Shown piece after piece: positions 11,496 through 50,761 of a stretch of DNA of 64,000 bases. The position numbers and the translations under genes are program-made. Source of the stretch: a virus; IMG/VR virus record IMGVR_UViG_3300045988_137393; one strand, given 5' to 3'. Under the pieces are notes generated by a model. It did not search any database. It was not told the origin of the DNA and worked only from the letters and a program-made list of their open reading frames with translations. How positions within the stretch are numbered: position 1 is the first letter of the stretch; every line of letters starts with the position of its first letter.

Positions 11496-11549
11496 GTGAT
11501 TTTTAAGAACCGAAAGAAACCATTATTTCATGTAAAGGTTGAGAGAATA

Positions 11550-11714: not shown

Positions 11715-11727
11715 AGGAGGATAAGGC

Positions 11728-11919: not shown

Positions 11920-11974
11920 AATCACACAGTAAACTAAACTTTCATCGGGATTAGAAAAATTGGAGGATTTAAGC

Positions 11975-12667
11975 TTGAAATTTGAAAAAACAGAGGTATG
12001 GGGATTTGAACACAGTTTCCGTGGGATGAGAAATCCTAAGAATTCTTGGGATAGAAGTGATAGCGGAAAATTATATTGGGATGGTACTTGGTATCACGAA
12101 GAATTAAAAAATTATTTTACTGAGTATGGAGTTAATTTCTACATCGGAGAAAATGATATGAAACTTGCACAGAATCTTATTAAAGCTGGTTCTGAGCATT
12201 GTAAATTTATGAGAATGATTCATGTAGCTGTAGATACAAATATGCCTAGATACTGGTGGAGTGAGGCTGACACATATCATTTCAATGCAAAGAACAGTTG
12301 TTCGACAATGCATAAGCTACTTAATAACGATGAACCTATTACATTAGATATGTTTGTTGTTTGCGAGGAAGATATGGATTGGTGGAATTATACAGTAAAT
12401 AAATTGGAATCTATGAGATTAGATTATAAGAAAATACAGAGAACAACAAAAGATACAAATGAAATGAATCGTCTTCTTATTAGGGCAAAGCGTATGTTAC
12501 CTGAAGGATTTGAACAAATGAGAACATGGGATACAAATTATGCAGAGCTTCGCAATATGTATTTTCAGCGTAGACATCATAGACTCAAAGAAGAATGGGT
12601 TGATACATTTTGTAGATGGGTAGAGTCACTTCCGTATGCAGAAGAGTTGATTATGTATGAGGGTTAG
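11975..12667 (+). CDS. ThyX-like (flavin-dependent thymidylate synthase fold) protein lacking the canonical RHR motif
   Basis: MPRYWWSEADTYHFNAKNSCSTMHKL aligns by pattern to the ThyX block P-x5-Q-x2-RHR-x3-N-x2-S-x-RY but carries TYH in place of RHR. The C-terminal TNYAELRNMYFQRRHHRLKEEW resembles the ThyX N-x-R-x-L ... R ... E-I/W block. Start is taken as the TTG 8 nt after ggagg; the track start is 11960. Confidence 0.45.
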   Translation: MKFEKTEVWGFEHSFRGMRNPKNSWDRSDSGKLYWDGTWYHEELKNYFTEYGVNFYIGENDMKLAQNLIKAGSEHCKFMRMIHVAVDTNMPRYWWSEADTYHFNAKNSCSTMHKLLNNDEPITLDMFVVCEEDMDWWNYTVNKLESMRLDYKKIQRTTKDTNEMNRLLIRAKRMLPEGFEQMRTWDTNYAELRNMYFQRRHHRLKEEWVDTFCRWVESLPYAEELIMYEG

Positions 12668-12688
12668 AAATGTTCATTTTGATAGGAG

Positions 12689-22750: not shown

Positions 22751-23923
22751 ATGGGTAAAGATTTAAAAGGTAAAGAACTTGGTGTGGGGTTGAATCAACG
22801 AAAGGATGGTAGGTATCAAGCACGATTTACTAAAAAAGGTGGTAAACGTGCAGAAAAGAATTTTGATAAAATAACAGAAGCAAGAGAATGGTTGTCAAAA
22901 GAAAAATATTTAGATAATATTCTAAGCAATAATAATATGACTGTAGATGAATGGTATAATTACTGGATTGAGAATTATAAAGAAGGAATTGTAAAAGATA
23001 ATACGACTAATAATTATAGACATCGTTATAAATACATTATAAAAAATGCCATTGGAGATATAAAATTAACAGATGTTAAACAAATCCATTGCCAAAAAAT
23101 TCTCAACCAAATGTTTGATAGTGGTAAATATTCGTATGGAACCATGGAGTTGACAGCTATTACAATGCACGCAATATTCAAATGTGCAGTAGAAAATAAT
23201 TATATCAGTAAGAATCCGGCAAATAACCTAAAAATTAAAAAACGTGACATTGACTTAATAGAAAGACGAGTTTTAACAAGAGAAGAACAAAAAATATTTA
23301 AAGAATATGCAAAAAACACTCTTTATTATAATGCATATTGCTTAGTTCTTGAAACCGGGTTAAGAGCCGGAGAAGTCGGTGGACTAAAATGGGATGATAT
23401 AGATTTTGATAATCACTATTTGTATGTAAACAGAACTCTCTTGCAAGACAAACAGAAGGGCGGTTTCTTTTTTGGAACACCAAAATCAAGATTAAGTAAA
23501 AGAAAGATTCCTTTAACAGATGAGGCAATCAAAGTCCTTAACGATCAAAAACAAGTGCAAAACAGACTGAAATTTCAAAATGACAAATGGGTTTCAAGAT
23601 GGGATGGACTTGTATTTACAACTATCAATGGTAATCCTGTTGGAACATCAACTTTTAGAACCATGATGGTGCGAATTGTTGCTAATATAAATAAAGACAG
23701 AATGATTAACAGTGTTGATGGGCAGTATGAAGAATTTGAACATTGTTATATGCACTCGCTCAGACATACATTTGCCACACGATGTATTGAAAAAGGAGTA
23801 CAACCTAAATCATTACAGAAGATGCTTGGACATTCTACAATTCAAGTAACAATGGATCTTTATGTTCATGTTACAGATGAACAATTAAGTGACGAAATTG
23901 AGAAGATGAATAAAGCCATTTAA
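22751..23923 (+). CDS. int: tyrosine-type phage integrase
   Basis: C-terminal catalytic region HSLRHTFATRC ... LGHSTIQVTMDLYVHV (HxxR and catalytic Tyr), with an RAGE motif upstream. 390 aa. Confidence 0.9.
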   Translation: MGKDLKGKELGVGLNQRKDGRYQARFTKKGGKRAEKNFDKITEAREWLSKEKYLDNILSNNNMTVDEWYNYWIENYKEGIVKDNTTNNYRHRYKYIIKNAIGDIKLTDVKQIHCQKILNQMFDSGKYSYGTMELTAITMHAIFKCAVENNYISKNPANNLKIKKRDIDLIERRVLTREEQKIFKEYAKNTLYYNAYCLVLETGLRAGEVGGLKWDDIDFDNHYLYVNRTLLQDKQKGGFFFGTPKSRLSKRKIPLTDEAIKVLNDQKQVQNRLKFQNDKWVSRWDGLVFTTINGNPVGTSTFRTMMVRIVANINKDRMINSVDGQYEEFEHCYMHSLRHTFATRCIEKGVQPKSLQKMLGHSTIQVTMDLYVHVTDEQLSDEIEKMNKAI

Positions 23924-34358: not shown

Positions 34359-37300
34359 TTATCTTCTTACTCCTTTGGCATAAGTTGCTTGGTTAATCTT
34401 TCTCACAACATTTTCAGCCTGTTTCTGAGCAACACCTTCCATCTGCTTAACAATCTTGTCTGTAGCGACACCTTCAACAATCGTTCTGTTGTCGATTTGA
34501 TAAGTAGGAGATTGGGATGAAACTTTCTCAATAGGAATGTTCTTCAGATTGCCAATAATAGAATCAATCTGTGGAATAACAGGCTTAAAATTCAACAATG
34601 CTTGCGTCTGTTCCTTAGAAAGTACAGCTTCGCCACGTTGTAAGAAACTAATACCATCTTCACCAGAAAGTTTAACAAGATCCTTAATCACACCGCCAGT
34701 TGAGAACGAAGCGTCTTTTATAAGTTTCTTGAGAGCTGAAGCAATTTTCTCTCTATCATTCTTACCAGACAAATCACTTTTTACAGATACACCAAGTTTC
34801 TTCGCAAGAGCAACTTCATTAGCTATACTCAGAACTTGTTTATGCTGTTTATCATAAAGATACTGATTAAGAGCACCGTAATACGATTTCTTGTGTGTTG
34901 CCGAATCTGAATGCTTAGATATCCATTCTGTAATATCACTTGCTTTCTTTTTGAGTTCATACAATTTCTGTTGCTTATCGGTATTGTTACTTCCTGAAGA
35001 ACCAGAACCGTTTCCGCTTGAAGTTCCTGAATCGTTTGATGATCCAATACCTTGTGTGTCTGTAACTTTTGTCTCTGCATACTTGGCACTTGCTTCAGCG
35101 GCTCTGTCAGCAGCATCACAAATAGATTGCCACGAAGATGCAATCAAACTAAGTTGTGCTGTAATGTTTGGAATGTTAGAAGATAATGTGCTTGCATAAT
35201 CACCTACAGCGTTTCCACCCTTTTCCCAAGCATTCACAATGTACGATGATATATCATATCCAGTATCCTTTGCGATTTTCTCAATATTAGATGCAACCTG
35301 TGAAGAGTTAGCATTTACATATGTGAGAGCATCAGAGAAAACTTTATCTGTATCTTTCAGGTAGTCTTCAGCTTGTTTTTTGCTATTTTCAAGCATCTTA
35401 TCGAGAGCATCTTCCTGATCGGAAACAGAATGATCGTACAACATGTCCGATCTATCTTTCTGTGCGTCTTGAAGATCGGATTTAAGTTGTTGTAATTTCT
35501 TCCGATTTTCTTCAGAATCGTCGCCTTCCAAAGCCGCAATCTGCTTTTCTAACTTAGCGATATTTTTATTAGAATCAGCTAACTTATCATTCCACTCTTT
35601 TAAGGACTTGTCTGTTTCTAACAATTCCTTTTTCTTCGAAATTGCTTCTTCCAAAGCATTATTCTGCGCATCTAATCCTTGCTTTACATAAGCAGCTAAC
35701 GACTTCTTCGCTTCATTAGCAGACTTGATAGAATCACGCTGACCTTGCTGATAAGTTCTCAACTTAGAGTTGTAATCGTTAAGACCAATTTTGCCCTCAT
35801 TATACATCTCATTCAAATCAGCAATAGCATCTTTGTACTTCTGAGCCTCAGCAAGATATGTATCATAATTCTGAGCGGTCAATCCCATAGCAGTAATACC
35901 ATCCTGCGTAATCATTCCCGTATCACTGTCAAACAGATTGTCAGAATCAAGCATGTCAATTAAGAAATCTGTCTCGTCCGTGATGTCTCCAAGCTTATCA
36001 AGTAACTCGTCAAAACGATCAAACTTCAACTCATTGATAGACTTTTGAAACTCCGCAAGTTCTTGCTCATCCTGTTGAATAGATTCATAGACACCATTTA
36101 ATGCTTCTTGTGCTTCATACCATTCATCGCTACCAAACTTAATCGTAGATAATTTCTTTGCAAGTTCTTCAGCTTCTTCCTGTTTAAGCTGCATATCAGA
36201 CTTAACGGCATCTGCTTGACGTGTATAATAAGCTTCACCTATTAACAGACCTTTTGCTTCAGCTATACTAAGAGAATTGGAAACAGCGTTCTTTCTCTGC
36301 TCAATCAGCCCGGCTTTATTGTCATATCTTGCCTGTACCTCATCAAAGTGATCTTTCCTAGTCTGACGCACATTAGAGGTATGATCCTCTTTAGCCTGAT
36401 TATAATTATCAGTTGCGGTATTCTTTGCAAGAAGATATTCATTATGTGCTATGCACTTTTTCCTAAGAGTGTCATTTTCAATCTTGTTAATAAGATTATA
36501 CGAAATTGACTTATTGGATTTTAAATTACTCTTAATAGAATTAAATTCATTTTGAGTAAGACCAATGTTTTTAGCTTTTGTTTTTTTAAGAGACTTTGTA
36601 AGAGAACTCTTATTGGATTTATAACTCTTTGTTGCACCAGTATAAGCAGTTTTTGAAGCTGATAACTGGCTATTGTAGTTTTTAATAATCTGTTTATACA
36701 GATTGTCAATATCAGACGTACCGATTTTCTTTGTTGGATTAAATGTAAGATTACCTACCTTGGCATTCAGAATATCCATCTTTGTTCCAAGTTTTTCAAT
36801 CTTATCAGAAGCACTGTCAATCGGGTTGTTCGCTAAAGTCTCATATAAATCCTTTAACTGATCCGTAAGACTGGTAACCTGTTCCTTGCAAGATTTTGCC
36901 TTTTCATACCAAGTCTGATAATCTTTCATGGCATTTTTCAGGTTTTCATTTTTGATAGTCTGGATTCCATCAGCGTCCAATGTACCATTACGGATAAGTT
37001 TCTTGTAATGTTCCAGTGTCTTGGATGATACACCTTTTTTGACCTTTTTTACATTCTTTCCGCTGCTAGAAGATGTAGATGTTGCATTGTTGATTTTGCT
37101 AAAACGTGAACCAGATACAAAATCCTTACGAGATGAAAGCTTGGAAACTCTTACAGATGCGCCAGTATGAGGGGATTCAATAAACTTACCGTCTCCACCA
37201 TAAATACCTACATGTGTGATGTTGTTTTTGCTTCCAAAGAATACTAAGTCACCAGCTTGCAAATTTTTCTTCGATGTGATTTTTGTCCCCATCTTAGCCT

Positions 37301-40300
37301 GGTCAGCCGCATGATGTGGTAAACTTACACCAAACTTCTTGTAAATCTGCTGTGTAAATCCAGAACAATCCGCACCTTTTGTAAGACTTGCACCACCCCA
37401 AACATATTTCAGTCCAAGATAATCTGTAGCAGTATCATATACAGCATTTCCACCTGTAGAAGAAGATGATGAAGTTGTCTTTTTGCTATTCTGTGTTTTT
37501 GCGGCTTTATTGGCATATGCCATGTATTTCTTATATGCCTTTTCCTGTGCAGTAATAGCTTTAGTTGTAGCTTCGATAGCTTTCTTAGTCTGATTTTTCT
37601 TTTGACCAAATGTAAGAAGATCGTCAATCTTGTCTTTAGCCTTAGATGCCTTGTCCGTGAGATTATTAAGTTTGATCTCAATAAAGTCAAATACTTCGGC
37701 TGCATCGGATTTTGTTTTGGATTTGGATTTTGATTTTTTTGATGACGGAGATTTATAACTTGATGAACCAGAAGAATTTACTTTTACTTGTGGTATATCT
37801 AATTTTGCACCAGCAGAAGTTGTTACACCATTTACAATGTCTTGAATTGCATTGTTAATATTATTGCGCATTTCATTAGACATAATTGGATTGTCTGATA
37901 ATCTTTGTTTTAATGCCGCAAGTTTATTTAAAGCTTCTGTACCTGCACCAGCCATTTTAGCAAGAGTGTAAATATTTTGACAATCTGCATCAGTTACAAT
38001 AGTGTTTTTGTTACAATACTGTTTTTCCAATGTGAAAGCTGCAAGTTTTGCCTTTTCCTGTTCTGTAATATCACCAAGATTTTGAAGTTTAAGAATATCA
38101 GCAACTGTGGCATTTTGCAAATCTGTGGATGCATCGGCAGAAAGAAGTTTTTCAAATCTAAGTTCTTCTTCCTTTTTTGCCAAAGCCTCTGTTACAATTT
38201 GCTCGGCATTTTTAACGCCCATATCTTCAAGCTGAGTGATATAATACTGTTTGTTTTCATCGGTAAGATTAGCGAGAAAATTGCCATCATTTACCCATTC
38301 AGTAGCAAGAGCATTAGCTGCTTTCTGGCACTGATCCATGCTAGATTCAGAACTACCCATTACCTCTTCAAACTCATCCCATGATTCAAGACCACGGACT
38401 GAAACATCAAATCCTGCTAAATCAGAAGCGGATGCAACTGTACCATTTTTCTTGTCAGCAAGCATATCAGATATCTTAGAAATCTGTGTAGACATAGAAG
38501 AGAGCTGCGTAGAAGCGTTTACAAGACCATTTATTTTCTGTGCAAGTGCCTCTGCTGATAAACCTGTTTCATTCATCAACTGCTGACCACCAGCCAAACC
38601 TTCAAGTGCGTTTCCTGTTAATTGTCCTGCATTTGCAAGGTCAAGAAGGTCATCTGCCGCACCTTTTAAATCGGAATCGTCTGTGTTTTTGAGATTGAGC
38701 CATGCTTCGTCAAAAGAAGCGATAGATGGGGCAGCAGAATCAGCAGCATTACCCGTATCTTCAATAGCATCCACACCAGCATTCAAATCATCACAGAAAA
38801 CTTTAAGATTAGAATCTTTTTCCCCTAAAAACTCTGCGTTATTAATCGCATTCATAAGGTTAGGATATTTTTGTAATTCTTCCTCTGTAAGCTTACCTTC
38901 TTGTGCCAATTGTTTAAGATCTTCTTTTGATTTCTCAATTCCGTTTGTATTGAAAATTTCTGAAATCTGAGAATTATTCCATCCTGCTTTGTCAGTATAA
39001 GAGTAGATTAACTTAATTATGTCTGCAATTTCTTGATATTTTGAAATTGTATTTTTTTCATCGGAGGACAAAGATTCTCCATTAGACTTCTTTTTGACAG
39101 CATTATCATAGGCATCTTGAAGATTGTTCTTCTTCTTTGTGAGATCTTCGATATTGTTATTTAATGATGTTGTATATTCATCTACAGTATCAATACAATC
39201 TTGTAAATTCTCTTCATAATACTTAATATCATCCTTAGAACCAGATTTCAAAGCTTTGTTATATCTCTTTTGTGTCTTTTCCATCTGCTCCGTATAATAT
39301 TCAAAAGATGCTAAATTGCCAACAATATCATCGCTGTTTCGAGCTTCCTGAAATACGCCAGTTGCTTTTGACTGAGCAAGTTGAGTATCAACCGCATTTT
39401 TATCAATATCACCTTTCCCATATTGTTTATTAAATGCAGTTACTGTTTTATCTGCCGCCTCTCGCGCAGAATTAGCCTTCTCTTTTTCTTCAATATTTTT
39501 TTGAAGTTCTAACTGTCGAGTAGCTTCTTTTAATTTATCTAGTTCTTCCTGTTCAACGTATGTGAGTTTATCTTTTTTATTAAGTTCATCAATACTTTTA
39601 TTTTGTTCTTCTAATTGAGAAGTTGTGTCTTTTAATGCTGTTTTAGCAGAATCATACTCACTTACAGCTTCATTCATTGCTTCATTGGCTTTTTCTACAC
39701 GATGGATATAATTATCAATAGCTGTAACAGCTAATTGAATGCCTTCTGCGATAAGCATACCAGCAATCATATTTGCCGCCATCTTTAATCCTTCTAAGGC
39801 AATATTAGCTGCTTTAGCACCAATGGTCATTTGCTCTAATCCATTATTGTAAGCAATAGCAGACTGCCTTGCTGCATTCTGAGCATTTTTTACATCATCA
39901 AGAGATACTTTAGTTAAGTCATTTTCTTGAACAAATTTTACTTGCCATTTTTCACCTTCTGATAATCCTTCAAAGTATTTTTGCCAACTAGACTGATTAG
40001 AATCAACGAATTCTTTTTGTTTCAATAGATTATCTAAAATACCTTGCGGATTTTTTTCATAAACAGAAAGATCTTTTAATTTATCTTGTATATCAGATTT
40101 AGTAATAATAAATTTATCACTTAAGTCTTTCTTAACGGAAGAATTTTTCCACGCATTTGCAATATTAGATATTGTATAATCATTTATTACAATTAATTCA
40201 TCAGAAACTTTTTTAAATCTATTTCCAATATCTTCAAATGATTTCCCCAATATTCCAAATTTCGATGAAAATGTATCTTTATCACTGTCAAATGTTTTGA

Positions 40301-40307
40301 ATATCAT
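34359..40307 (-). CDS. tape measure protein, C-terminal portion, with embedded NlpC/P60 peptidase domain
   Basis: 1982 aa. It has long coiled-coil regions and the hydrophobic segment GAKAANIALEGLKMAANMIAGMLIAEGIQLAV. The NlpC/P60 block YVWGGASLTKGADCSGF...ITHVGIYGGDGKFIESPHTG maps to about 37090-37440. The ATG at 40307 has no SD. Confidence 0.7.
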   Translation of the reverse strand: MIFKTFDSDKDTFSSKFGILGKSFEDIGNRFKKVSDELIVINDYTISNIANAWKNSSVKKDLSDKFIITKSDIQDKLKDLSVYEKNPQGILDNLLKQKEFVDSNQSSWQKYFEGLSEGEKWQVKFVQENDLTKVSLDDVKNAQNAARQSAIAYNNGLEQMTIGAKAANIALEGLKMAANMIAGMLIAEGIQLAVTAIDNYIHRVEKANEAMNEAVSEYDSAKTALKDTTSQLEEQNKSIDELNKKDKLTYVEQEELDKLKEATRQLELQKNIEEKEKANSAREAADKTVTAFNKQYGKGDIDKNAVDTQLAQSKATGVFQEARNSDDIVGNLASFEYYTEQMEKTQKRYNKALKSGSKDDIKYYEENLQDCIDTVDEYTTSLNNNIEDLTKKKNNLQDAYDNAVKKKSNGESLSSDEKNTISKYQEIADIIKLIYSYTDKAGWNNSQISEIFNTNGIEKSKEDLKQLAQEGKLTEEELQKYPNLMNAINNAEFLGEKDSNLKVFCDDLNAGVDAIEDTGNAADSAAPSIASFDEAWLNLKNTDDSDLKGAADDLLDLANAGQLTGNALEGLAGGQQLMNETGLSAEALAQKINGLVNASTQLSSMSTQISKISDMLADKKNGTVASASDLAGFDVSVRGLESWDEFEEVMGSSESSMDQCQKAANALATEWVNDGNFLANLTDENKQYYITQLEDMGVKNAEQIVTEALAKKEEELRFEKLLSADASTDLQNATVADILKLQNLGDITEQEKAKLAAFTLEKQYCNKNTIVTDADCQNIYTLAKMAGAGTEALNKLAALKQRLSDNPIMSNEMRNNINNAIQDIVNGVTTSAGAKLDIPQVKVNSSGSSSYKSPSSKKSKSKSKTKSDAAEVFDFIEIKLNNLTDKASKAKDKIDDLLTFGQKKNQTKKAIEATTKAITAQEKAYKKYMAYANKAAKTQNSKKTTSSSSSTGGNAVYDTATDYLGLKYVWGGASLTKGADCSGFTQQIYKKFGVSLPHHAADQAKMGTKITSKKNLQAGDLVFFGSKNNITHVGIYGGDGKFIESPHTGASVRVSKLSSRKDFVSGSRFSKINNATSTSSSSGKNVKKVKKGVSSKTLEHYKKLIRNGTLDADGIQTIKNENLKNAMKDYQTWYEKAKSCKEQVTSLTDQLKDLYETLANNPIDSASDKIEKLGTKMDILNAKVGNLTFNPTKKIGTSDIDNLYKQIIKNYNSQLSASKTAYTGATKSYKSNKSSLTKSLKKTKAKNIGLTQNEFNSIKSNLKSNKSISYNLINKIENDTLRKKCIAHNEYLLAKNTATDNYNQAKEDHTSNVRQTRKDHFDEVQARYDNKAGLIEQRKNAVSNSLSIAEAKGLLIGEAYYTRQADAVKSDMQLKQEEAEELAKKLSTIKFGSDEWYEAQEALNGVYESIQQDEQELAEFQKSINELKFDRFDELLDKLGDITDETDFLIDMLDSDNLFDSDTGMITQDGITAMGLTAQNYDTYLAEAQKYKDAIADLNEMYNEGKIGLNDYNSKLRTYQQGQRDSIKSANEAKKSLAAYVKQGLDAQNNALEEAISKKKELLETDKSLKEWNDKLADSNKNIAKLEKQIAALEGDDSEENRKKLQQLKSDLQDAQKDRSDMLYDHSVSDQEDALDKMLENSKKQAEDYLKDTDKVFSDALTYVNANSSQVASNIEKIAKDTGYDISSYIVNAWEKGGNAVGDYASTLSSNIPNITAQLSLIASSWQSICDAADRAAEASAKYAETKVTDTQGIGSSNDSGTSSGNGSGSSGSNNTDKQQKLYELKKKASDITEWISKHSDSATHKKSYYGALNQYLYDKQHKQVLSIANEVALAKKLGVSVKSDLSGKNDREKIASALKKLIKDASFSTGGVIKDLVKLSGEDGISFLQRGEAVLSKEQTQALLNFKPVIPQIDSIIGNLKNIPIEKVSSQSPTYQIDNRTIVEGVATDKIVKQMEGVAQKQAENVVRKINQATYAKGVRR
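40293..40304. repeat. left copy of a perfect 12-bp inverted repeat (tgttttgaatat) bounding the tape-measure island
   Basis: Its reverse complement atattcaaaaca occurs at 44562-44573. This copy covers codons 2-5 of the 1982-aa ORF. Confidence 0.85.
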
Positions 40308-40335
40308 ACTATTTTATTACAAGTTGTTTGAGGAC

Positions 40336-40364
40336 TTGCTGAATTTTATTATATGTGATACAAT
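40336..40364 (+). promoter_or_regulatory. sigma-70-type promoter for the island plus-strand operon
   Basis: ttgctg (-35), a 17-nt spacer ending in tg-a, then tacaat (-10). It lies 25 nt upstream of ggagg and the ATG at 40390. Confidence 0.45.
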
Positions 40365-40389
40365 TTTCATAAATTGGAGGTGTGTCATC

Positions 40390-40860
40390 ATGTTAATGTA
40401 TTGTAAAAAATGTGGAAGAACAATTATAGATTCAAAAAAATGTGACATTTGTAACTCTATAACATATGAAGTTCCTGAAGAATATCTATTACTATATAAT
40501 GGAAAAATTTATAAAAATAATTTGAATGAAAGCAAAAAAGACCAATTCATAGAAGAATGTATAAAATCTTCACCAGAATTTGACGAATATCTATTTAACA
40601 ATAGAGATAGAATCAAAGCACAAAAATCTGCCGAATATGAACGAGATATGGCTATCGGTGATGCAATACGTCAAGGTGCGGATGTTAAAACAGCTTTTCG
40701 CAATGGTGGTAAGAACATGCCAAAATGCCCTACCTGTGGCTCACTTAATGTAGAAAAGATTTCAACTAGTAAGAAAATATTTGGCGGTGTAATATTTGGA
40801 TTGTTCAGTTCAGATGTAAGAAACACAATGCACTGTAAAAATTGTGGAGCAAAATGGTAA
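40390..40860 (+). CDS. double zinc-ribbon protein
   Basis: Start at the Met after ggaggtg. N-terminal CKKCG...CDIC and C-terminal CPTCG...CKNCG, with a hydrophobic patch IFGGVIFGLF. Confidence 0.5.
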   Translation: MLMYCKKCGRTIIDSKKCDICNSITYEVPEEYLLLYNGKIYKNNLNESKKDQFIEECIKSSPEFDEYLFNNRDRIKAQKSAEYERDMAIGDAIRQGADVKTAFRNGGKNMPKCPTCGSLNVEKISTSKKIFGGVIFGLFSSDVRNTMHCKNCGAKW

Positions 40861-40935
40861 ACGTATGTTCCGACTATCAATTCTTTGTTTAAAATGGTAA
40901 AATTTGGTTATCAAATATATTACGAAAGAAGGTTG

Positions 40936-41340
40936 ATGCATATGGATTTTATATCACCAGAAGTTAAAAGACAGATGCAGCAAAACCAAGCTAATCGTCA
41001 GATAGAAATAAATGCTTCCAAGATGCAGCTTGATAGTAGCGCAGAACAAGTTGCTTATTATCTGTATGAAGAAATCAGAGATTATCAAAACAAACTTCCT
41101 GATACAGAAGATGTAGCAATGTCTATTGTTCAATTTAATCAGTCAATTACCATTTTTGTTAAAGAAATCGGTTGCATTGGCTACAATTTGGTTTGTTTCC
41201 ACGGAGAGGACACATCTGGCAAACCGTTGGAACTGATACAGCATGTACAACAGTTAAATTTTCTTTTAATGGTTGTCCAAAAACCTGCTCCAGAAGTTCC
41301 GAAACGTCAGATAGGTTTCGTAGGTCAGGTTGAGGAATAA
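40936..41340 (+). CDS. hypothetical protein
   Basis: Met after gaaagaagg. 134 aa. No motif recognised. Confidence 0.4.
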   Translation: MHMDFISPEVKRQMQQNQANRQIEINASKMQLDSSAEQVAYYLYEEIRDYQNKLPDTEDVAMSIVQFNQSITIFVKEIGCIGYNLVCFHGEDTSGKPLELIQHVQQLNFLLMVVQKPAPEVPKRQIGFVGQVEE

Positions 41341-41390
41341 GTTTTGTTAAATCAATATTCGTATTTATCACCTCGAATTAAGAGAGTAGA

Positions 41391-41416
41391 AGACTTGTCA
41401 GATGGCAGGTCTTTTA
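41391..41416 (+). terminator. intrinsic terminator of the island plus-strand operon
   Basis: 9-bp stem agacttgtc / ggcaggtct (two G-U pairs) with a 4-nt loop, followed by tttt. Confidence 0.55.
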
Positions 41417-41437
41417 TGATATATGTTTACAATGCGA

Positions 41438-41463
41438 AAGAGACTAGATTGCTCTAGTCTCTT
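41438..41463. terminator. perfect 10-bp hairpin between convergent island operons
   Basis: aagagactag - attgct - ctagtctctt. Confidence 0.5.
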
Positions 41464-41554
41464 ATTAGTTACTAAAAACTTATATGCAGTTCGTATACAC
41501 ATTTCTGTGCAACTTGATTTACAATTCATATTATATATTATGTATTATATGTTG

Positions 41555-42100
41555 TCAAGATAAATTTGTTAATTCTTTTATTTTGTTTTTTACATAATCA
41601 TATGGTGTTTGTATTTTATAAACTTTTTTATTAGGATTTATTCTCATAATATCGGCACAAAACATTTGATGCACCTTTAATTTACTACATCCTTCTTCTT
41701 CAAAATTCTTAACTCTTATTATCATTTCACATGTTTTATCAACAGGAGCAGATTCTTTTTTAATAGATACAAGCGGAACTATTAACATAGTGTTTCCAAA
41801 ATCTTTTAATATTAAACACCAATGACTATTGTATATTTCTTTTGGGTATGAATTTTCTATATAAAAGTAACAGACATCTCCCTCTGACGGACGTTCCATT
41901 CCCTTTAAATTATATTTTATCTTTGATAATTCAGTATTATTTTTAGCATTCTTACCTATTGTGTTATTAAAGTGATAAATTGAATTAACCATTCTTTTAT
42001 AGTTGTATACAAAACTAATAATATCAAAATTCTTAATAGATAAAATCTTTTTATTTATTAACTCAAGTTCTTTTTCAACATCCATAATAGTGTCCACCAA
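41555..42100 (-). CDS. PemK/MazF-fold toxin-like protein with N-terminal extension
   Basis: EGDVCYFYI...HWCLILKDFGNTMLIVPLVSIKK...SKLKVHQMFCADIMRI follows the MazF/PemK pattern GD-hxxhxh ... RPxhhh ... hhhhPhTS ... sxhxxdQhxxhdxxRh. This is pattern-level evidence only. Confidence 0.45.
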   Translation of the reverse strand: MVDTIMDVEKELELINKKILSIKNFDIISFVYNYKRMVNSIYHFNNTIGKNAKNNTELSKIKYNLKGMERPSEGDVCYFYIENSYPKEIYNSHWCLILKDFGNTMLIVPLVSIKKESAPVDKTCEMIIRVKNFEEEGCSKLKVHQMFCADIMRINPNKKVYKIQTPYDYVKNKIKELTNLS

Positions 42101-42207
42101 TCATAAGTATTATAATTACCATTATATACCAATAATCGACAGAATACTATCAGAACGTATGTTTATAAATATAAAAGAAGAGTAGCCAATCGACTACTCT
42201 TTATCTT

Positions 42208-43218
42208 TTATCCAATTTCCTTTATAGCATCTTTAAAGAACTGCAATCGTCCATTTACCATATCTGAATTTGATGTACCGTTAGAACAGTATTGCAGGTA
42301 ATCCAAATTTGTGTCATATGATGCTAAGAATTCATTTAACCATTCCATATATTTAGAAGTAGATTTAGAATCTCTAACCATACGGTACATTCCATAAATA
42401 CACATTGGAATTGTACTTGCTTTTATTTTTACATCTTCTGGAAGTTCTTCATTCAACTTATCTAATGCTTTGCGCAGATTTTCAATTTTCTTTTCTGCAA
42501 ATTGTTTTTCATTTGGATCTGCAATCTTATCATTATAATACATAATAAATTTATTCATATCTACATCTCTAAATGAAGTAAAATTGTTTTTATCTGTCTT
42601 TTCTGTAAGCATTAAACATTGAATAACAATATCTCTGTCAAGGTTCTTTTTAAACTGAGCAGGAGATAAAACTTTTTCAAAGAATGGATGATCAGCAATA
42701 GAGTAAATAATTTCTCTGACTTCATTGCTTTCAATAGTGCTTCTTTTCTGTCCGTTTGAAAGTTGGTGTCCCATATTTATTCTTTCAAAAATATCAACAA
42801 TTTCTTCTTCGGTTGCATCTGTCATTGTTATAATAGAAATATCTCTGTCATTAAATCTTGACTGAACAGCTTCGTCAAGCTTAGAAAATTTCTTTCCTGC
42901 GATTTCGTATTCAGTCCCATCAATTGTTAATGGTTTTAAATTCTTTGACAATTTAAATTCGTCATTAGCAAAGGCTGCGATTGTAGTAAAACGTTGCTTA
43001 AAATCAACTACATCAATCTCTTTTGTGTCACTGTGTTTATTCACAAGTGCAGGGTAGATAGGGTAGTTTCTTAACAAAGTATCAATAAACAATGACTTCT
43101 CTTTTGGTTTCCAAATACCAGCTCTACGTTGAATTGGTAAGTCAAAATTATATTTTCCCTTATTGATTTCACCAACCAACGATCTTAAACTTTTCGGACT
43201 TGTTTTAATATCTTCCAT
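42208..43218 (-). CDS. DUF262 (ParB-like nuclease superfamily, GmrSD N-terminal type) protein
   Basis: N-terminal FDLPIQRRAGIWKPKEKSLFIDTLLRNYPIYPALV matches the DUF262 signature (P-x-Q-R ... W ... LIDS/T). No DUF1524/HNH half is present. Start set at the Met 8 nt after ggagg. Confidence 0.6.
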   Translation of the reverse strand: MEDIKTSPKSLRSLVGEINKGKYNFDLPIQRRAGIWKPKEKSLFIDTLLRNYPIYPALVNKHSDTKEIDVVDFKQRFTTIAAFANDEFKLSKNLKPLTIDGTEYEIAGKKFSKLDEAVQSRFNDRDISIITMTDATEEEIVDIFERINMGHQLSNGQKRSTIESNEVREIIYSIADHPFFEKVLSPAQFKKNLDRDIVIQCLMLTEKTDKNNFTSFRDVDMNKFIMYYNDKIADPNEKQFAEKKIENLRKALDKLNEELPEDVKIKASTIPMCIYGMYRMVRDSKSTSKYMEWLNEFLASYDTNLDYLQYCSNGTSNSDMVNGRLQFFKDAIKEIG

Positions 43219-43296
43219 CCAGTTTGCCTCCTTCAAAAAATGCAAAAATTTTTATATTTTCACAATAGCATAATTGTAAAATTTTGTAAATAGAAT

Positions 43297-43313
43297 TATT
43301 CAAAATTTGAATA
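43297..43313. promoter_or_regulatory. 17-bp perfect palindrome tattcaaa-a-tttgaata in the DUF262 operon promoter region
   Basis: Read directly from the sequence. It shares the attcaaaa core with the 12-bp island-bounding repeat. Confidence 0.4.
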
Positions 43314-43559
43314 TTTTTCTTTCTGCATTATTCGACAAACTTACGTTCTGGATTTAAGAATTTGGTAGAATATGGTAATATAATACCAAGTGCAAGATAA
43401 TCGTATTACCACATTACGATTCATTATCAGGATCGAACACTTGGTATCTTACCATGTGGGAGTGCCTATGTAAGTGGCACTAGGATGAACATTTCAGCCC
43501 ATTCTGGGCAAATACAAATTCCTGAAAAGTTATTTTACAGGAAAGGAGGGTAGAAGAGA

Positions 43560-43739
43560 TTGTACATTGTTATATTATTGTGTGCAATCATCGGATTACT
43601 TGCGGTGCGTAGATATTTTAAATCACAAGATCATGCCATTGATCAGATTGCTAATCATCAAGAAATGTCCGATGATAAAGCAGATGCTATCGCAAGAATT
43701 TCGACTAAACAACATAAAATCTTTAAAAAGGCTAGTTAA
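43560..43739 (+). CDS. small membrane-anchored protein (59 aa)
   Basis: TTG start 9 nt after aaaggaggg. Hand translation gives (M)YIVILLCAIIGLLAVRRYFKSQDH... It is preceded by a hairpin-rich leader and followed by a strong terminator. It uses a different frame from the track ORF 43567-43845. Confidence 0.45.
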   Translation: MYIVILLCAIIGLLAVRRYFKSQDHAIDQIANHQEMSDDKADAIARISTKQHKIFKKAS

Positions 43740-43786
43740 TTACCATTCTCCAATTGTATTCATATTCATCTATATTTATTCTCCAA

Positions 43787-43822
43787 GAGGGCTGGTCATC
43801 ACGACAGCCCTCATTTTATTTA
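43787..43822 (+). terminator. intrinsic terminator
   Basis: 8-bp GC-rich stem gagggctg / cagccctc followed by attttatttatt. Confidence 0.65.
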
Positions 43823-44592
43823 TTCTCTTTTTACTGTTGAAATAATCATTGATATTTGATACAATAAATTTGTACATACGACCAATTTTATGTACTACCC
43901 CCAATGTTACAATATAGGGAGTCTTTGATTTTCGGTAATCTCAAAGACAATTTAGCACTACAAGAACAGCAACTTGTGGTGCTATTTTATTATTCTCTAT
44001 TTTACTCGATTGAAATCAAGATTTCTTGGTTTTGTGTGTTTCTTCAAACTTACGGTACACACGAACCCTACTGTTATCCTATTAACAATGTGCTATTTAA
44101 TAGGGTGAGAGTAGTAACACTCTTTTACGCTTTTATATCTCAGTCACGAGAGTAGTGCGATAACTACGTATGGAGTCCCTTTTACAAGCTATTTTGTAAT
44201 AACTCAAAATCGTTTAGACTCTCTGAACACCTCCACTATAATATTCTCTATTACAGTAGAATCCGTTGCTGATTGCCGATTTAGTCCATTAAGGACATGA
44301 TACTTAGGGTTTCCCCATATACCCAAATAACCTCCATTTCTGGATTTGACTTTTCTTGTTGTTACCAACATCCTTTCGGAATACATTCACGCTCGCCATT
44401 TCTAGCCACGTTGTAGTGTGTTATTTTATATATACGGTATATTTTATTTCTTCCCAGCACTGTGAGATAGCAACTCACAATTACGATTTATTTTGAAACA
44501 TCTATAGGTTGACTAGACCTAATCTTCCCAACTCTTGATTGTTGTCTTGAGCTAGGTGGGCATATTCAAAACAATAACAATGATTTGAAAAA
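43823..44592 (-). ncRNA. candidate large structured RNA (class unresolved; some group I intron-like elements)
   Basis: About 770 nt with no credible ORF and many hairpins. Three are GAAA-capped in the minus orientation: 44371-44380 tcc-gaaa-gga, 44324-44348 caaa.tcca-gaaa-tgga.tttg, and 44299-44323 gguau.ggg-gaaa-ccc.guauc. There is also an 11-bp hairpin at 44233-44259. ggacuaaaucgg (44276-44287) and agagagucu (about 44216-44224) resemble the group I R/S (P7) elements. P3/P4 could not be assigned. Confidence 0.3.
44562..44573. repeat. right copy of the 12-bp inverted repeat (atattcaaaaca)
   Basis: Located 20-31 nt downstream of the stop of the 772-aa tape measure ORF. It is the reverse complement of 40293-40304. 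Confidence 0.85.
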
Positions 44593-46911
44593 TTACGCAC
44601 TCACGTAACATTTACCGATGTTTTTAAAACTAAGACTTGCTCCAATAGCAGCTAATAAAGTAGGTATTGCATTACCACTTTTTACAATACCATCTAAAAC
44701 TTCAATTAATTTTCCACCTGCATCAATTGCACCTTTAAGGAAATCGGACGACAAGAGATCGGCAGATAGTTCTTCTAATTTTGCCTTTGTTTGATCAATG
44801 GTATACTGTACGCTCTGTTGGTGTTTTTTTTCTTCCTCTGCGGCTGAACCAGCGGAATCCATAGCTTCCTGATATGATTTTTCAAGTAGCTCAGGATTAC
44901 TCAAGGCGGCTGCCAAAGCGTTGCTTTGCTGTTTTCCAGCTAATGCCTGAAGTAAAGAACTCTGATCCAGATCGGAAAGATTATTCCAGACTTTTGAGAT
45001 ATTTAATACGATATCATATATACTCTTAAATGTTTTTCCATCTGATTCGAGTATGTCATATCCTGTCATTGCTTTAATCATTTTCTGTAAATCAGCCGTA
45101 GATGTTACAAGACCATCAGTATCCTCGCCAGCCTGTTCTAACTCTGATGTTGCCGAACGGATGCGCATACTAACAACTTTCCACATATTTCCGACCTTTT
45201 CTGGGTTCTGAATTACAGAGTTGGTTGTACTAATTAAGGCTACGCTTTCCTGAAGTGAAGTGTTTGCTGCATTAAATGAAGCTGCTGATCTTTGAAGAGC
45301 TTCACCAATTCCACCAGAATCAATTGGCTCGTTGTTCGATACATTGTTGAAAATGTCAATTATTTTTTCGGCTTCATCAGCTTCCATTTTGAAGCCACGT
45401 AATGTAGAAATCAATGACTCGTTTGCGGTATCAATATCAATTCCATCACCAACATTTTTATATAATAAAGCAACCCTGGCTAATTCCTTACTATCTGGAA
45501 GATTATAACCATTTCTTGACCAGTCTGCTGTCGCAGAAATGGTATCAGAAATTGTTCCACCAATGTCTTTGGCAATATCTGCATAACTGCTAAAATCGCC
45601 ATATATCTGAGATGATGTTGCTTCTGAGACTTTTGCTAAATCTGTAATTTGCGTATTTAAATCAATTACAGTAGAAGCGACCTGTTTAAAACCATTAACA
45701 ATATCATTAAAACCGAAATACATTCCAATTTGTGCAGCAAAACCATAAAATGCTTTCTCTTTAATGACATCAAACATACTTCTGCCAGCACGACCAGCAA
45801 GTTCTTCGGCATTAACAATTTTCATTATTTCGCCATGTATTTTTTCTAAACTGACACTAGGATTTCCAGAAATAAGTTCTTGCTTATATGCTTTAATTTT
45901 AACCTTTGCCTCTGAAGACATTGCTGAATTTTCACGAAGTATTTTATTGATTTTATCAATTTCTTTTTGTCCTGCTAATTGACTATATCCCTTTTCAGAA
46001 GCCGACATATTAGTGACAGTGGCGATAGTTTCTTTGATTTTCTTTTCGTATTTGTCTAAGTTCTGAATATCCTCATCACTAGCGATACCATTTTGATTAG
46101 TCTTTATATTGTCGAGAAGAGTTGCATACTGTTTGACAGCATCACGTACAGCCTGTACATTTTTTAAATATGTATCACTTGTCCAACCACCATCATTAAA
46201 TCTATCAATAGTGGCTTGATATTTATCAACCTTACCATTGTAAGAATCTAACCGTTTATCATACTTATTGAGGTTTGCATTGGCATTCTGTTCTTTAGCC
46301 TGTGTGTTTTCCTTAACTTTCTGAGTATTCTGTTCTAATACATTATTCTCTTCTTTGATGGAATTGGTAACAGACTCTGTAGATGCAGATGAAATATTCG
46401 TTTTCTGTCCAATCTTACTCTGTGCATCAGCCAACTTCTCAGCTTCTTTAGCAGCATCTTGATATGCATTACTAATATTCTCCACCTGTTTGACAGCACC
46501 ACCCGTATTGCCACCCATATTGCTCATGTTTTTATTAACATTGAGAATATTCTGACTCAGTTCAGAAAGTGACTTGTCAATATTCTGAATAGAAGAGAGT
46601 AGTGTTTTAGCACCAGAATCATCCACTTTACCAAAAGCTTTACTTAAACTTTGTACTTCTGATACAATATTTGATAGTTCTTTCGATAAATTCTCAAACT
46701 GTTTAAAATCACCTGTTCCTTTACTAAGAGAATCAAGCATTTTTTCGAGATTAGAAATTACACTGGATAATTTCTTTTCATCGACATTTAATTTGATTTT
46801 ATATTCTTTGCCTTCAACAGTGTCTAATCTGTCTTGGACTTGTTTCATATCTGAAAGTAGTTTTGCTACATTCGATTTGATTTCTACATCATACTGATAT
46901 GTACCTGGCAT
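44593..46911 (-). CDS. tape measure protein, N-terminal portion (TP901-type core region)
   Basis: 772 aa. N-terminal coiled coil, then the block AFYGFAAQIGMYFGFNDIVNGFKQVASTVIDLNTQITDLAKVSEATS...DWSRNGYNL typical of the TP901-family TMP core. It ends abruptly in a hydrophobic segment, ...LLAAIGASLSFKNIGKCYVSA. Confidence 0.7.
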   Translation of the reverse strand: MPGTYQYDVEIKSNVAKLLSDMKQVQDRLDTVEGKEYKIKLNVDEKKLSSVISNLEKMLDSLSKGTGDFKQFENLSKELSNIVSEVQSLSKAFGKVDDSGAKTLLSSIQNIDKSLSELSQNILNVNKNMSNMGGNTGGAVKQVENISNAYQDAAKEAEKLADAQSKIGQKTNISSASTESVTNSIKEENNVLEQNTQKVKENTQAKEQNANANLNKYDKRLDSYNGKVDKYQATIDRFNDGGWTSDTYLKNVQAVRDAVKQYATLLDNIKTNQNGIASDEDIQNLDKYEKKIKETIATVTNMSASEKGYSQLAGQKEIDKINKILRENSAMSSEAKVKIKAYKQELISGNPSVSLEKIHGEIMKIVNAEELAGRAGRSMFDVIKEKAFYGFAAQIGMYFGFNDIVNGFKQVASTVIDLNTQITDLAKVSEATSSQIYGDFSSYADIAKDIGGTISDTISATADWSRNGYNLPDSKELARVALLYKNVGDGIDIDTANESLISTLRGFKMEADEAEKIIDIFNNVSNNEPIDSGGIGEALQRSAASFNAANTSLQESVALISTTNSVIQNPEKVGNMWKVVSMRIRSATSELEQAGEDTDGLVTSTADLQKMIKAMTGYDILESDGKTFKSIYDIVLNISKVWNNLSDLDQSSLLQALAGKQQSNALAAALSNPELLEKSYQEAMDSAGSAAEEEKKHQQSVQYTIDQTKAKLEELSADLLSSDFLKGAIDAGGKLIEVLDGIVKSGNAIPTLLAAIGASLSFKNIGKCYVSA

Positions 46912-49532: not shown

Positions 49533-50729
49533 TTATAATATTTCTAACCTAATTGGGTGAGAACCTACACCCTCTATTCCCTTGTCAAAGACATCGGGAA
49601 CTACCTTTTTCATGATCTGATAAGCACCATTCACATCAGCATTAATTGTTTTACCATTATTGGCAATGAACAGACCTCTATATACTCTTCTTTCTTTATT
49701 ATAATTCTCTTTTATAGGTTGCTCTTTGTCCAAAAATGATGTTCCACTTGTGTATGCTTCTTCTGTCATAACAACTTCAATACCATATTCTTCACATTTG
49801 CTCTGAATTTGACTAATCAACATATCAAATGGAATATATGTGAAGTTCTGCTTATTCTCGTTTTCTTGTTTCCACTTCTTATTTAATCCAATAATCAATG
49901 TATCAATTTTATTCTCTACACAATAATTCACCACCTTTTTACTTGCACAGTGCATAAGATATTTGATCTTCTCATATCTCTTATCTGTAAGTTTCTGAAG
50001 ATTTTTGCTCCAATCTCTACCAGTTTCTTTCTTTAATTGGGATTGCATTTCAGCTTTTCTTTTGTTATAAAACTGATTAACAGATTTGATTGCACCACCT
50101 TTGATTACTACTGGCTGCAAACCAACATTATTAACCATTGTCACAAGATTTTCTGTTCCTAAATCAATGCTACATATTCTTATTCTCTCTTCTACTGCAT
50201 CAGGGACTTCAATTTCATATACAATTTCCATCACATAATAATCGGCTTTAGGGACAAATCTACACTGCATTAATTTGCCAACTGCGTGAGTCTTCACTGT
50301 ATAACCACCAAAAGGTTTAAATGCAATTCTGAATTGTCCATTATTTAATGAGCATTGTATATTCTTCAACATAAAAACCTGTCTTCCATCTTTAGGAAGA
50401 TATTTGGGAAGCTTCGGCATACCTAAATACTTTGATGGATTCTTCTTCCAATCCTTGATTGCCTTAAAATAAGACTTCCACATTTTATCTACTAACTGAA
50501 TTGTTTTCTGAGCTGCTTGTGATCCACACTCTTTATAACAATCCATTGGTTGCATAAGTTTTTGTACGTCATAAGCACTAAGTTTGTTACCATTGTTTAT
50601 AAACTCCTGTCTTATAATGTAGTTCGCTTGATTATATACGTTCTTAGAATAGAAACAATACTGATCAACTACATTGTATATTGGGTTATTCTTTCTTATA
50701 ATTTGTTGTTCAACTCGATTTATCTTCAT
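49533..50729 (-). CDS. tnpB: TnpB (IS200/IS605-family OrfB, RuvC-like RNA-guided nuclease family), variant without zinc-finger cysteines
   Basis: RuvC triad context ICSIDLGTENL (D), VVMTEEAYTSGTSFLD (E) and INADVNGAYQI (D). No CxxC pairs lie between the E and the last D. Start set at the Met 8 nt after aaggagg. Confidence 0.8.
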   Translation of the reverse strand: MKINRVEQQIIRKNNPIYNVVDQYCFYSKNVYNQANYIIRQEFINNGNKLSAYDVQKLMQPMDCYKECGSQAAQKTIQLVDKMWKSYFKAIKDWKKNPSKYLGMPKLPKYLPKDGRQVFMLKNIQCSLNNGQFRIAFKPFGGYTVKTHAVGKLMQCRFVPKADYYVMEIVYEIEVPDAVEERIRICSIDLGTENLVTMVNNVGLQPVVIKGGAIKSVNQFYNKRKAEMQSQLKKETGRDWSKNLQKLTDKRYEKIKYLMHCASKKVVNYCVENKIDTLIIGLNKKWKQENENKQNFTYIPFDMLISQIQSKCEEYGIEVVMTEEAYTSGTSFLDKEQPIKENYNKERRVYRGLFIANNGKTINADVNGAYQIMKKVVPDVFDKGIEGVGSHPIRLEIL

Positions 50730-50761
50730 AGAGGACACCTCCTTACGCATTACAATATAGC

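Follow-up and report, generated by a model that had tools for sequence, protein, structure and literature searches.

A probable self-splicing group I intron with a multigene, two-strand cargo in the tape measure gene of an SPbeta-like Lachnospiraceae phage

Introduction

In the viral record IMGVR_UViG_3300045988_137393 (IMG/VR; 64,000 nucleotides, analyzed over its full length and referred to below as the window), the coding region of the tape measure protein is divided between two open reading frames (ORFs) separated by 4.3 kb, with five plausible genes lying on both strands of the interval. The question raised by this locus is how a complete tape measure protein could be obtained from it. 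A preliminary description had considered excision at the DNA level, RNA splicing, and a tolerated two-piece protein. Here, we report that the 4.3-kb island is very probably a group I intron that splices itself, inserted in the tape measure gene of a temperate Lachnospiraceae phage similar to SPbeta. Among the routes considered initially, RNA splicing is the one favored by the data, through features of a group I intron, a type that the preliminary description had not named.

Results

The two ORFs were found to be organized as initially described. The upstream ORF (positions 44593-46911, minus strand; 772 amino acids [aa]) encodes the TP901-type core of the tape measure protein (PF10145, PhageMin_Tail, at aa 447-659, E=4.5e-22) and ends in ...AAIGASLSFKNIGKCYVSA followed by a stop codon. 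The downstream ORF (34359-40307, minus strand; 1982 aa) encodes an NlpC/P60 domain (aa 965-1059, E=1.6e-26). A single tape measure profile of 2,625 positions, PHROG 4211, was matched collinearly by the upstream ORF (positions 571-944) and by the downstream ORF (positions 956-2596), in agreement with the proposal that one tape measure coding region has been split in two by the island. The lack of a ribosome-binding site in front of the downstream ATG was also confirmed: the sequence 5' of this codon, aaacaacttgtaataaaatagt, contains nothing similar to a Shine-Dalgarno (SD) sequence, and an in-frame TAA is located upstream, with two codons between. Most of the neighboring genes are preceded by GAGGT, GGAGG, or AAGGAGG.

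Comparison of the upstream protein with 120 close homologues, nearly all of ~770 aa, revealed agreement up to ...SFKN[IV]G, where conservation stopped exactly. Past this motif, the homologues diverged into at least eight unrelated short tails, including KCYVSA, an immediate stop, IDTLVAY, RDKMYSLSF, and EWNYISKF..., each terminated by a stop codon. The break was located at the identical codon in all the relatives examined, namely, 34 loci from metagenomes or viruses plus 3 genomes of Lachnospiraceae, with protein identities as low as ~34%. In these relatives, the large downstream frame restarted 2.2 to 7.4 kb after the break, and the stop codon fell, where mapped, 0 to 31 codons beyond the splice site. 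The island was present in every split relative, and its content is what varied.

The predicted exon 1 (44614-46911, minus strand) comprises 766 codons, includes the PF10145 domain and the region matching PHROG 4211 positions 571-944, and ends in ...AAC ATC GGT, the last U of which would be the 5' splice-site nucleotide. The predicted exon 2 (34359-40304, minus strand) comprises 1,981 codons and a stop, includes the NlpC/P60 domain and the region matching PHROG 4211 positions 956-2596, and starts with AUA UUC AAA ACA (IFKT), the first 12 nucleotides (nt) of exon 2 forming the putative exon strand of the P10 helix. The intervening intron (40305-44613, minus strand; 4,309 nt) would consist of a 5' ribozyme of ~560 nt, a cargo of ~3.7 kb, and a short 3' tail ending in a terminal G (40305). 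Joining position 44614 to position 40304 generated a frame of 2,747 codons with a single stop, reading ...SFKNIG/IFKTFDSDKD..., which matches the initial proposal of one ancestral gene of about 2750 codons interrupted by an inserted element. The predicted ligated junction is ...AACAUCGGU/AUAUUCAAAACA... (in another extent, ...AAAAACAUCGGU/AUAUUCAAAACAUUUGAC...), and the predicted junction peptide is ...SFKNIGIFKTFDSDK....

The end of the upstream ORF (44593-44613, minus strand) would thus be an intron-encoded read-through tail, KCYVSA, followed by a stop codon located within a hairpin, UUACG/CGUAA, directly past the 5' splice site. This hairpin covaries, as relative L052 has UUAUG/CAUAA. Because the stop lies 7 codons into the intron, only the 772-aa truncated product would be made from unspliced RNA. 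The cysteine of the KCYVSA tail led us to consider a split intein, which was rejected since the tail contains only 6 residues and differs in every lineage. A group II intron was also rejected: GUGCG is present 12 nt past the break, but no Rfam group II match, domain V, or reverse transcriptase was found, and both the frame and the conservation place the break directly after GGU.

Searching 1.8 billion representative proteins retrieved many further split relatives ending at query residue ~766, together with uninterrupted tape measure proteins of 2,700 to 4,300 aa displaying 35 to 52% identity. Single BLASTP alignments to uninterrupted proteins of 2,958 to 3,852 aa crossed the boundary between aa 766 and 767 and ran 200 to 280 residues into exon 2 (query residues 263-976 for P0216, 312-992 for P0220, 342-1049 for P0221, and up to ~999 for P0174). 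An uninterrupted tape measure spanning the junction, which the preliminary description had proposed to look for in related phages, was therefore found. The closest uninterrupted version (P0174, locus L079) is encoded by one continuous 9.7-kb gene, which reads AAA AAA TTT GGC GGT GGT TTA ATT TCT CAA ACA TTT GAT TCA (KKFG-GGL-ISQTFDS) at the site where the exon edges of the window read AAA AAC ATC GGT / ATA TTC AAA ACA TTT GAC AGT (KNIG/IFKTFDS).

All recognizable parts of the ribozyme lie 5' of the cargo, within the ~560 nt at the start of the intron. Elements P, Q, R, and S and helices P3, P4, P6, P7, and P8 follow each other in canonical order within the first ~450 nt (minus strand throughout). 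The 5' strand of the predicted P3, AAAUCGU (44483-44489), pairs with ACGAUUU (44207-44213), bridging pre-P4 to post-P7, with three compensatory pairs in comparison to relative L017 (AAGCCAU/AUGGCUU). P4, which is invariant and 100% paired, is formed by UGCUGG (44454-44459) in the P element AGUGCUGGGAAG and UCAGCA (44267-44272) in the Q element AAUCAGCAAC. The P6 hairpin (CUACUGUAAU...AUUAUAGUGG, 44233-44259) is still formed in L017 from a different sequence. The R element GUUCAGAGAGUC (from 44227) and the S-like element AAAAGGGACUCC form P7 (44173-44221) by pairing of GAGUC (44221-44217) with GACUC (44177-44173), enclosing J7/3, the 3' strand of P3 (44213-44207), and the P8 hairpin (44205-44186), which also displays compensatory changes between the window lineage and L017. 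Near-textbook R/S pairs (GUUCAGAGACUA...AUAGUCC) are present in several lineages.

In P7, all 60 cells of an alignment of 10 sequences from 7 lineages were paired, with compensatory changes in 4 of the 6 pairs. None of 500 shuffles reached this result, and slid registers gave 23 to 57%. A bulged A followed by an invariant G-C pair (columns 61/119 of alignment A2), with a closing G-C or A-U pair (columns 59/120), was found in 10 of the 10 sequences; from its position, the invariant G-C pair would be the guanosine-binding site. For the P2-hairpin, P3, an extra hairpin, P4, P7, and P8, comparison of the window lineage with L017 (70% identical) yielded 36 pairs, with 96.5% of 144 cells paired and 12 compensatory pairs, a count that 0 of 500 shuffles reached (33 to 44% in slid registers). 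The core region folded better than shuffled sequences (z=-3.67), and P6, P7, and P8 were recovered in the centroid structure. The compensatory upkeep of the core helices and of the two guide pairings described below therefore points to selection on RNA function.

The group I model of Rfam (RF00028, Intron_gpI) returned a weak partial match of 15.9 bits on the correct strand (44220-44317), covering P4-P6/J6-7, which was seen after the search space had been reduced. Among the traits relevant to subgroup assignment, extra helices between P7 and P3, which are typical of IA introns, are lacking, and the P5 extension is ~180 nt long. In this extension, 41 nt (CUACAACGUG...GAGCGUGAAUG) are 85% identical to a stretch of the nrdE locus of Staphylococcus phage Twort, located ~86 nt upstream of the ORF for I-TwoI. 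The extra hairpin, GUGAG...CUCAC (44462-44478, minus strand), is located between P3 and P4; it covaries fully with that of L017 (AGCGG...CCGCU) and is absent in the L032 lineage. Insertions in J3/4 are unusual for group I introns. The core motif was detected in 23 viral-contig matches, of which the 21 with enough upstream sequence were all at the tape measure site, and 2 could not be judged.

Alignment of the 3' junctions revealed that coding conservation starts at AUAUUCA... (I-F-K/T...). The preceding triplet is ATG in the window and in L011, L016, and L005; ACG in L001, L003, L006, L015, and L019; CAG in L020; and TAG in L022. Its final G is the sole constant, being invariant in 12 of the 12 relatives with a mapped 3' junction, from several lineages, and the variants include loci whose intervening sequence is 95 to 97% identical to that of the window. 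The ATG of the downstream ORF, which the preliminary description had taken as a start codon, is therefore not one and would instead hold the terminal G of the intron. These results also bear on the possibility that the island is a decayed ribozyme remnant and that the two ORFs are translated separately, their products assembling noncovalently. Split essential phage genes with assembling products exist, such as the split DNA polymerase genes of T4-related phages, and an ATG happens to start the downstream frame in the window. However, this ATG lacks an SD and is replaced by ACG, CAG, or TAG in relatives, including those with 95-to-97%-identical introns, and compensatory changes maintain the core helices as well as both guide pairings. 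We consequently regard the two-piece tape measure of the preliminary description as very improbable.

A putative internal guide sequence (44556-44573, minus strand) is located ~40 nt into the intron and consists of 5'-UGUUUUGAAUAU (P10 strand, 44573-44562) followed by GCCCAC (P1 strand, 44561-44556). The P10 strand exactly complements nt 1 to 12 of exon 2 (12 of 12 nt), a score equaled by 2 of 300 shuffles. Corresponding P10 pairings were found for guide UUGUUUGAAUGU with exon AUAUUCAAACAA in L006 (guide UGUUUGAAUGU when extended by one G.U pair), for guide UGUGCAAG with exon CUUGCACA in L005, and in L018 (11+3 bp); P10 is limited to 4 bp only in L001. Since the automated choice of the P1 partner was noisy, with several loci misassigned, we relied instead on an unbiased complementarity search with shuffles. 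Exon and guide were complementary in L006 and L025 (GUCGGU/GCCGAC), L010 (GUGGGU/GCCCAC), L005 (CUGAGU/GCUCAG), and L033 (UAGGU/GCCUA), each pairing ending in U.G. P1 thus contains 5 to 6 bp with covariation in the relatives, and both P1 and P10 covary among lineages. In the window, the final U of exon 1 faces the G of GCCCAC. At the 5' splice site of L003 and L027, exon ...GUCGGC faces guide ACCGAC, both partners being changed and C.A being present where all the others have the U.G wobble. C.A can stand in for U.G in ribozyme studies.

At the other end of the intron, the terminal G (40305) follows GUAU (GUAU-G, 40305-40309, minus strand), which can pair with AUAC (44168-44171) just past P7. 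In the window, this candidate P9.0 has 4 bp, against 3 bp in the variants with ACG. The combination of P1, P10, and a terminal G, as predicted here, is the arrangement that defines the splice sites of group I introns. A tether helix between the guide extension and a conserved YUCAAACAA motif, ~30 nt upstream of the 3' splice site, was also considered and rejected, as it scored no better than shuffles except in L001. In that locus, a 12-nt complementarity (AUAUCAUUUUGU/ACAAAAUGAUGU; 3 of 300 shuffles) joins intron positions +16 to +27 to positions -46 to -35 from the 3' splice site and may act as a compensating tether in the only lineage whose P10 is 4 bp.

The preliminary description had drawn attention to the resemblance between SFKNI, at the end of the upstream ORF, and IFKTF, at the start of the downstream ORF, as a possible duplicated target or attachment core. 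The loose likeness of the exon edges (TTTAAAAACAT and TTCAAAACAT) does exist in the window and would favor excision of the island from the DNA before the late genes are expressed, through site-specific recombination between the copies of a duplicated core. However, recombination within this repeat would produce AAC ATT TGA, i.e., a stop, and the likeness is absent in other lineages, e.g., in L005, in which exon 1 ends in ...GCTGAGT and exon 2 starts with CTTGCACA.... The SFKNI/IFKTF resemblance is therefore not a meaningful repeat. In addition, no recombinase is encoded by the island of the window, and the edges coincide exactly with ribozyme features. DNA excision is hence scarcely credible, and it is P1, P10, and the ribozyme's terminal G that set the predicted edges of the island, and not an attachment core.

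The cargo occupies both strands, leaving only ~85 nt of noncoding sequence before the 3' splice site. Two genes are oriented as the tape measure gene. The first (42208-43218, minus strand), which has its own SD, AAGGAGG, encodes a 336-aa NsnA-like protein composed of a ParB-DUF262/GmrSD_N domain and a C-terminal domain (PF03235, E=6.9e-15; PADLOC NsnA, E=1.4e-34 over the full length; PD-T4-2_A, E=5.5e-14). Homologues of this protein were found in 12 of 21 loci, on the sense strand in all of them; no other protein is encoded as often among the sense-strand cargo genes. Proteins of the NsnA type have been proposed to sense DNA (PMC12065111). The second gene (41555-42085, minus strand) follows the NsnA-like gene and encodes a 176-aa protein with no family match and a candidate MazF/PemK-like fold: its GDVCYF...LIVPLVS motif resembles MazF/PemK-fold toxins, the BLASTP comparison with the PemK-domain cargo protein of L029 gave E=0.098, and no PDB or Pfam match was obtained. 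PemK-domain or similar proteins occupy the same slot in several relatives, and the two genes may form a sensor-effector module. In the Menshen system (NsnABC), an NsnA sensor is combined with the ABC-ATPase NsnB and the effector NsnC. The window has only the NsnA-like protein, solitary or paired with the 176-aa protein, and no match to NsnB or NsnC was found among the neighboring genes, so that this is not a complete Menshen system.

The three remaining genes are antisense to the tape measure gene. They encode a 59-aa hydrophobic protein with no family match (43560-43739, plus strand), a DUF6173 protein (40885-41340, plus strand; PF19670, E=1.4e-22), and a 156-aa double zinc-ribbon protein (40390-40860, plus strand) that abuts the 3' splice site. 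This zinc-ribbon family was detected in at least 17 of 21 loci and in all intron lineages, without exception on the antisense strand, and in most loci no other cargo ORF separates its gene from exon 2 (homologues in L001, L005, L008, L015, L016, L018-L020, L022, L023, L026, L028, L029, and L032-L034). These proteins have variable N termini and end in a conserved module of ~45 aa, PKCPTCGS...GLFGLAS...CKNCGYKW. The constant presence and orientation of this gene suggest a link to the intron, in its maintenance, regulation, or mobility.

The cargo is 2.2 to 7.4 kb in size in the Lachnospiraceae phage relatives. Apart from the zinc-ribbon and NsnA-like genes, its content varies among the 21 loci and includes PemK/MazF-domain proteins, DUF3800, TnpB, IS21, and a marginal DUF559 nuclease. 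The intron therefore behaves as a tolerated insertion site for accessory or defense-type genes. No match to a homing endonuclease (LAGLIDADG, GIY-YIG, HNH, His-Cys, or PD-(D/E)xK) was found in the five cargo proteins of the window, and family searches of these proteins detected no transposase or recombinase; a marginal DUF559/Vsr-like match (E=2e-4) was obtained for L026 alone. In L018, a TnpB gene (~11503-12675) is located directly past the ribozyme core and is missing from L026, the first 527 nt of the two introns being 99% identical. L003 (15950-18279) and L004 carry an IS21 istA/istB pair within the cargo. The TnpB gene of L018 and the IS21 element of L003 are secondary insertions, indicating that the cargo region tolerates further insertions.

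The same insertion sequence (IS) elements are what would favor the view that the tape measure gene was simply broken by insertions in a defective, nonviable prophage. In contrast, both exons have kept open frames, of 766 and 1,981 codons; dozens of divergent phage contigs of 80 to 186 kb and prophages within larger contigs share this architecture; and neither frame-disrupting mutations nor elevated dN/dS was seen in exon 2 across the relatives. There is thus very little probability that the locus is a relic of this kind.

Several signals were detected within the intron. Two tandem terminator-like hairpins (43953-43984 and ~43787-43812, plus strand), each followed by TTTTATT(T)ATTCTCT, are located between the cargo and the ribozyme in the orientation for antisense-direction transcripts. 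The motif of this tail (AGAGAAUAAUAAAAU when read on the sense strand) is found again in L006 and L010, which are unrelated intron lineages, as if a shared insulator module had been exchanged. Another terminator-like hairpin (42178-42201, minus strand, also scored on the plus strand) follows the NsnA-like gene. An antisense promoter-like site within the cargo was read by eye. A perfect sigma-70 consensus promoter, TTGACA-17-TATAAT (12 of 12 positions; 41558-41530, minus strand), is also present within the cargo, 1.2 kb upstream of exon 2, and is followed ~60 nt downstream by a 10-bp hairpin (~41470-41440) with no sizeable ORF after it. A small RNA could start at this site, as could a transcript of exon 2 on its own or an RNA antisense to the operon of the DUF6173 and zinc-ribbon genes.

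The phage may be described as SPbeta-like because the neighboring genes match the YomU, YomW, and YonB families; its relatives typically have contigs of 80 to 186 kb. No near-identical phage records were found. Positions 1-24000 of the window (plus strand) encode a DnaB-like helicase, a DHH-family protein, the alpha subunit of DNA polymerase III, an ATP-dependent ligase, the anaerobic ribonucleotide reductase NrdD, and a tyrosine integrase (22751-23923), a gene content that fits a large temperate phage or prophage. A 405-aa TnpB (OrfB_IS605 plus a Cas12f1-like TNB domain; 49533-50750, minus strand) is encoded in the late/tail operon, ~2.6 kb upstream of exon 1. Its gene has no SD and is absent at that position in L001, L003, and L005. 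A search of the window for a second intron, such as an IStron around the TnpB gene, revealed no R/S pair; since no group I core adjoins it, this gene is probably a plain IS605-type insertion.

Discussion

The anatomy of the sequence, the covariation, the open joined frame, and the collinearity with uninterrupted genes were observed directly. In the mechanism that we propose, the late transcript would run from exon 1 through the intron into exon 2, and the ribozyme core would fold from the first ~560 nt of the intron. The guide would pair with the end of exon 1 (P1), with the U.G wobble at the cleavage site, and the 12-nt extension of the guide would pair with the start of exon 2 (P10), 4.2 kb downstream. 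A guanosine cofactor would then cleave after GGU (44614), the terminal G (40305) would dock, and the exons would be ligated to ...SFKNIG-IFKTFDS..., giving a single 2,747-aa tape measure protein. The sequence between the core and the 3' tail would be a cargo with its own signals, including SD sequences, an antisense promoter-like site, and terminator-like hairpins. Catalytic activity, splicing in cis over 4.3 kb, and independent expression of the cargo are what we infer from the sequence.

Several observations weigh against an active group I intron at this site. The P1 of the window is weak, since AUCGGU and GCCCAC form 3 bp, a mismatch, and 1 bp. The gathering score of the Rfam model, 50, was not reached, with no match at this threshold in the whole window, in a 6-kb region, or in 7 relatives; this failure reflects the limit of sensitivity of the RF00028 model and not a structural criterion. 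An intron-less allele with the exact predicted junction was not found in viral contigs (0 matches), and the 14 metagenome matches were all due to chance, none being a tape measure gene; the closest uninterrupted gene (P0174/L079) agrees with the window at the site except for a 3-codon indel. The intron seems to be fixed in the clade of the window. Finally, a sense-strand terminator-like hairpin (42201-42178) is located inside the intron, and two to three of the cargo genes are transcribed toward the late operon, which would hinder the synthesis of a continuous 4.3-kb intron RNA.

The same hairpin and the convergent antisense genes would be accommodated by splicing in trans, with one transcript carrying exon 1 and the core, another carrying the 3' tail and exon 2, and the two brought together via the unusually long P10 (12 bp) and docking of the terminal G. 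The location of the whole recognizable core 5' of the cargo, the short noncoding segment (~85 nt) before the 3' splice site, and the perfect sigma-70 consensus promoter on the sense strand, 1.2 kb upstream of exon 2, are also in favor of this possibility, as is the length of the P10 of the window, since P10 of group I introns usually comprises a few base pairs. To our knowledge, however, natural trans-spliced group I introns occur only in organelles, where they are broken in a core loop and both halves bear complementary structure, whereas the 3' piece would here hold only P10, P9.0, and the terminal G. Moreover, some relatives have a short P10 (4 bp in L001), the region adjoining the 3' splice site revealed no conserved promoter on the sense strand, and IStrons splice in cis over kilobases of cargo (PMC4227781). 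We therefore consider trans-splicing unlikely and splicing in cis probable.

The proposed intron shares features with several known systems. Group I introns of subclasses IA1 and IA2 have been reported at three sites (TMP-IVS1, -IVS2, and -IVS3) of the tape measure genes of Bacillus cereus-group prophages (Tourasse & Kolsto 2008, PMC2504315). The class of host gene and the type of element are the same as here, the site is defined by P1 and P10, different lineages occur at one site, and many of the introns have no complete homing endonuclease gene. Unlike the B. cereus introns, for which no multigene cargo is mentioned in the section consulted, those described here comprise 2.2 to 7.4 kb with up to ~7 nonoverlapping ORFs of at least 70 aa on both strands. 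They also differ in having no extra P7-P3 helices, in residing in SPbeta-like Lachnospiraceae phages, and in escaping detection by Rfam.

IStrons (CdISt1 and BcISt1; Tourasse et al. 2014) combine a 5' ribozyme with a 3' cargo, and CdISt1 was shown to splice as one unit (PMC4227781). They resemble the present intron in having a complete 5' ribozyme, kilobases of 3' coding cargo, and a 3' splice site beyond the cargo, also in Firmicutes (PMC4227781). In contrast, the cargo of IStrons is an IS200/605-type transposon moving to many unrelated genes, whereas the cargo of the window has no transposase and includes antisense transcription units, and 21 of the 21 judgeable occurrences of the core motif were at a single site. 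The lack of a transposase and the single insertion site indicate that the element is not an IStron. Group I introns that carry additional genes have been described, with total sizes reaching ~20 kb (PMC4227781).

In the nrdD (sunY) intron of phage T4, the whole catalytic core precedes the ORF, and selection of the 3' splice site, which lies hundreds of nucleotides farther downstream, takes place via P9.0 and P10. That intron contains one sense endonuclease ORF of <1 kb, whereas the intron of the window contains ~3.7 kb with five genes on both strands and internal terminator-like hairpins. The nrdE intron of Twort, with I-TwoI as the single HNH endonuclease ORF, interrupts a different host gene and displays only local sequence similarity. 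Thus, group I introns in tape measure genes and layouts with a 5' ribozyme and a 3' cargo are already known, and the multigene bidirectional cargo would be a new variation on them; the literature searched did not mention any group I intron of a phage that carries a variable bidirectional island of defense-type genes.

An intron at this site accounts for the annotation by pipelines of two "minor tail protein" genes separated by a puzzling island in human-gut phages of ~150 kb that form a widespread family. The length of the tape measure protein, which predicts tail length, should be taken from the ligated 2,747-aa product. The ribozyme also belongs to a family that is missed by the curated Rfam group I model.

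More tentatively, and with somewhat less than an even chance of being correct, the intron could be more than a tolerated parasite, namely, a long-lived "safe harbor," i.e., a self-excising RNA scaffold in an essential low-copy late gene that holds an exchangeable bidirectional island of defense, toxin, and accessory genes across a clade of gut Lachnospiraceae phages. If this is true, signals of the cargo itself would drive its expression, for instance in the lysogen, and the cargo would be removed from the late mRNA; the terminator-like hairpins would insulate the cargo from the ribozyme; and splicing across 2 to 7 kb, or even in trans, would also gate tail assembly.

The locus offers a natural system to study how a ribozyme finds a 3' splice site located kilobases away via a long P10, despite terminator-like hairpins and antisense genes. 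The range of what a phage group I intron may carry would be widened from one endonuclease gene to a multigene island on two strands, containing defense-type genes, toxin-like domains, IS elements, and promoter- and terminator-like signals. This would link self-splicing introns to the biology of the accessory and defense gene "hotspots" of phages, in which a self-removing RNA seems to provide a safe parking place for accessory or defense-like genes within an essential gene.

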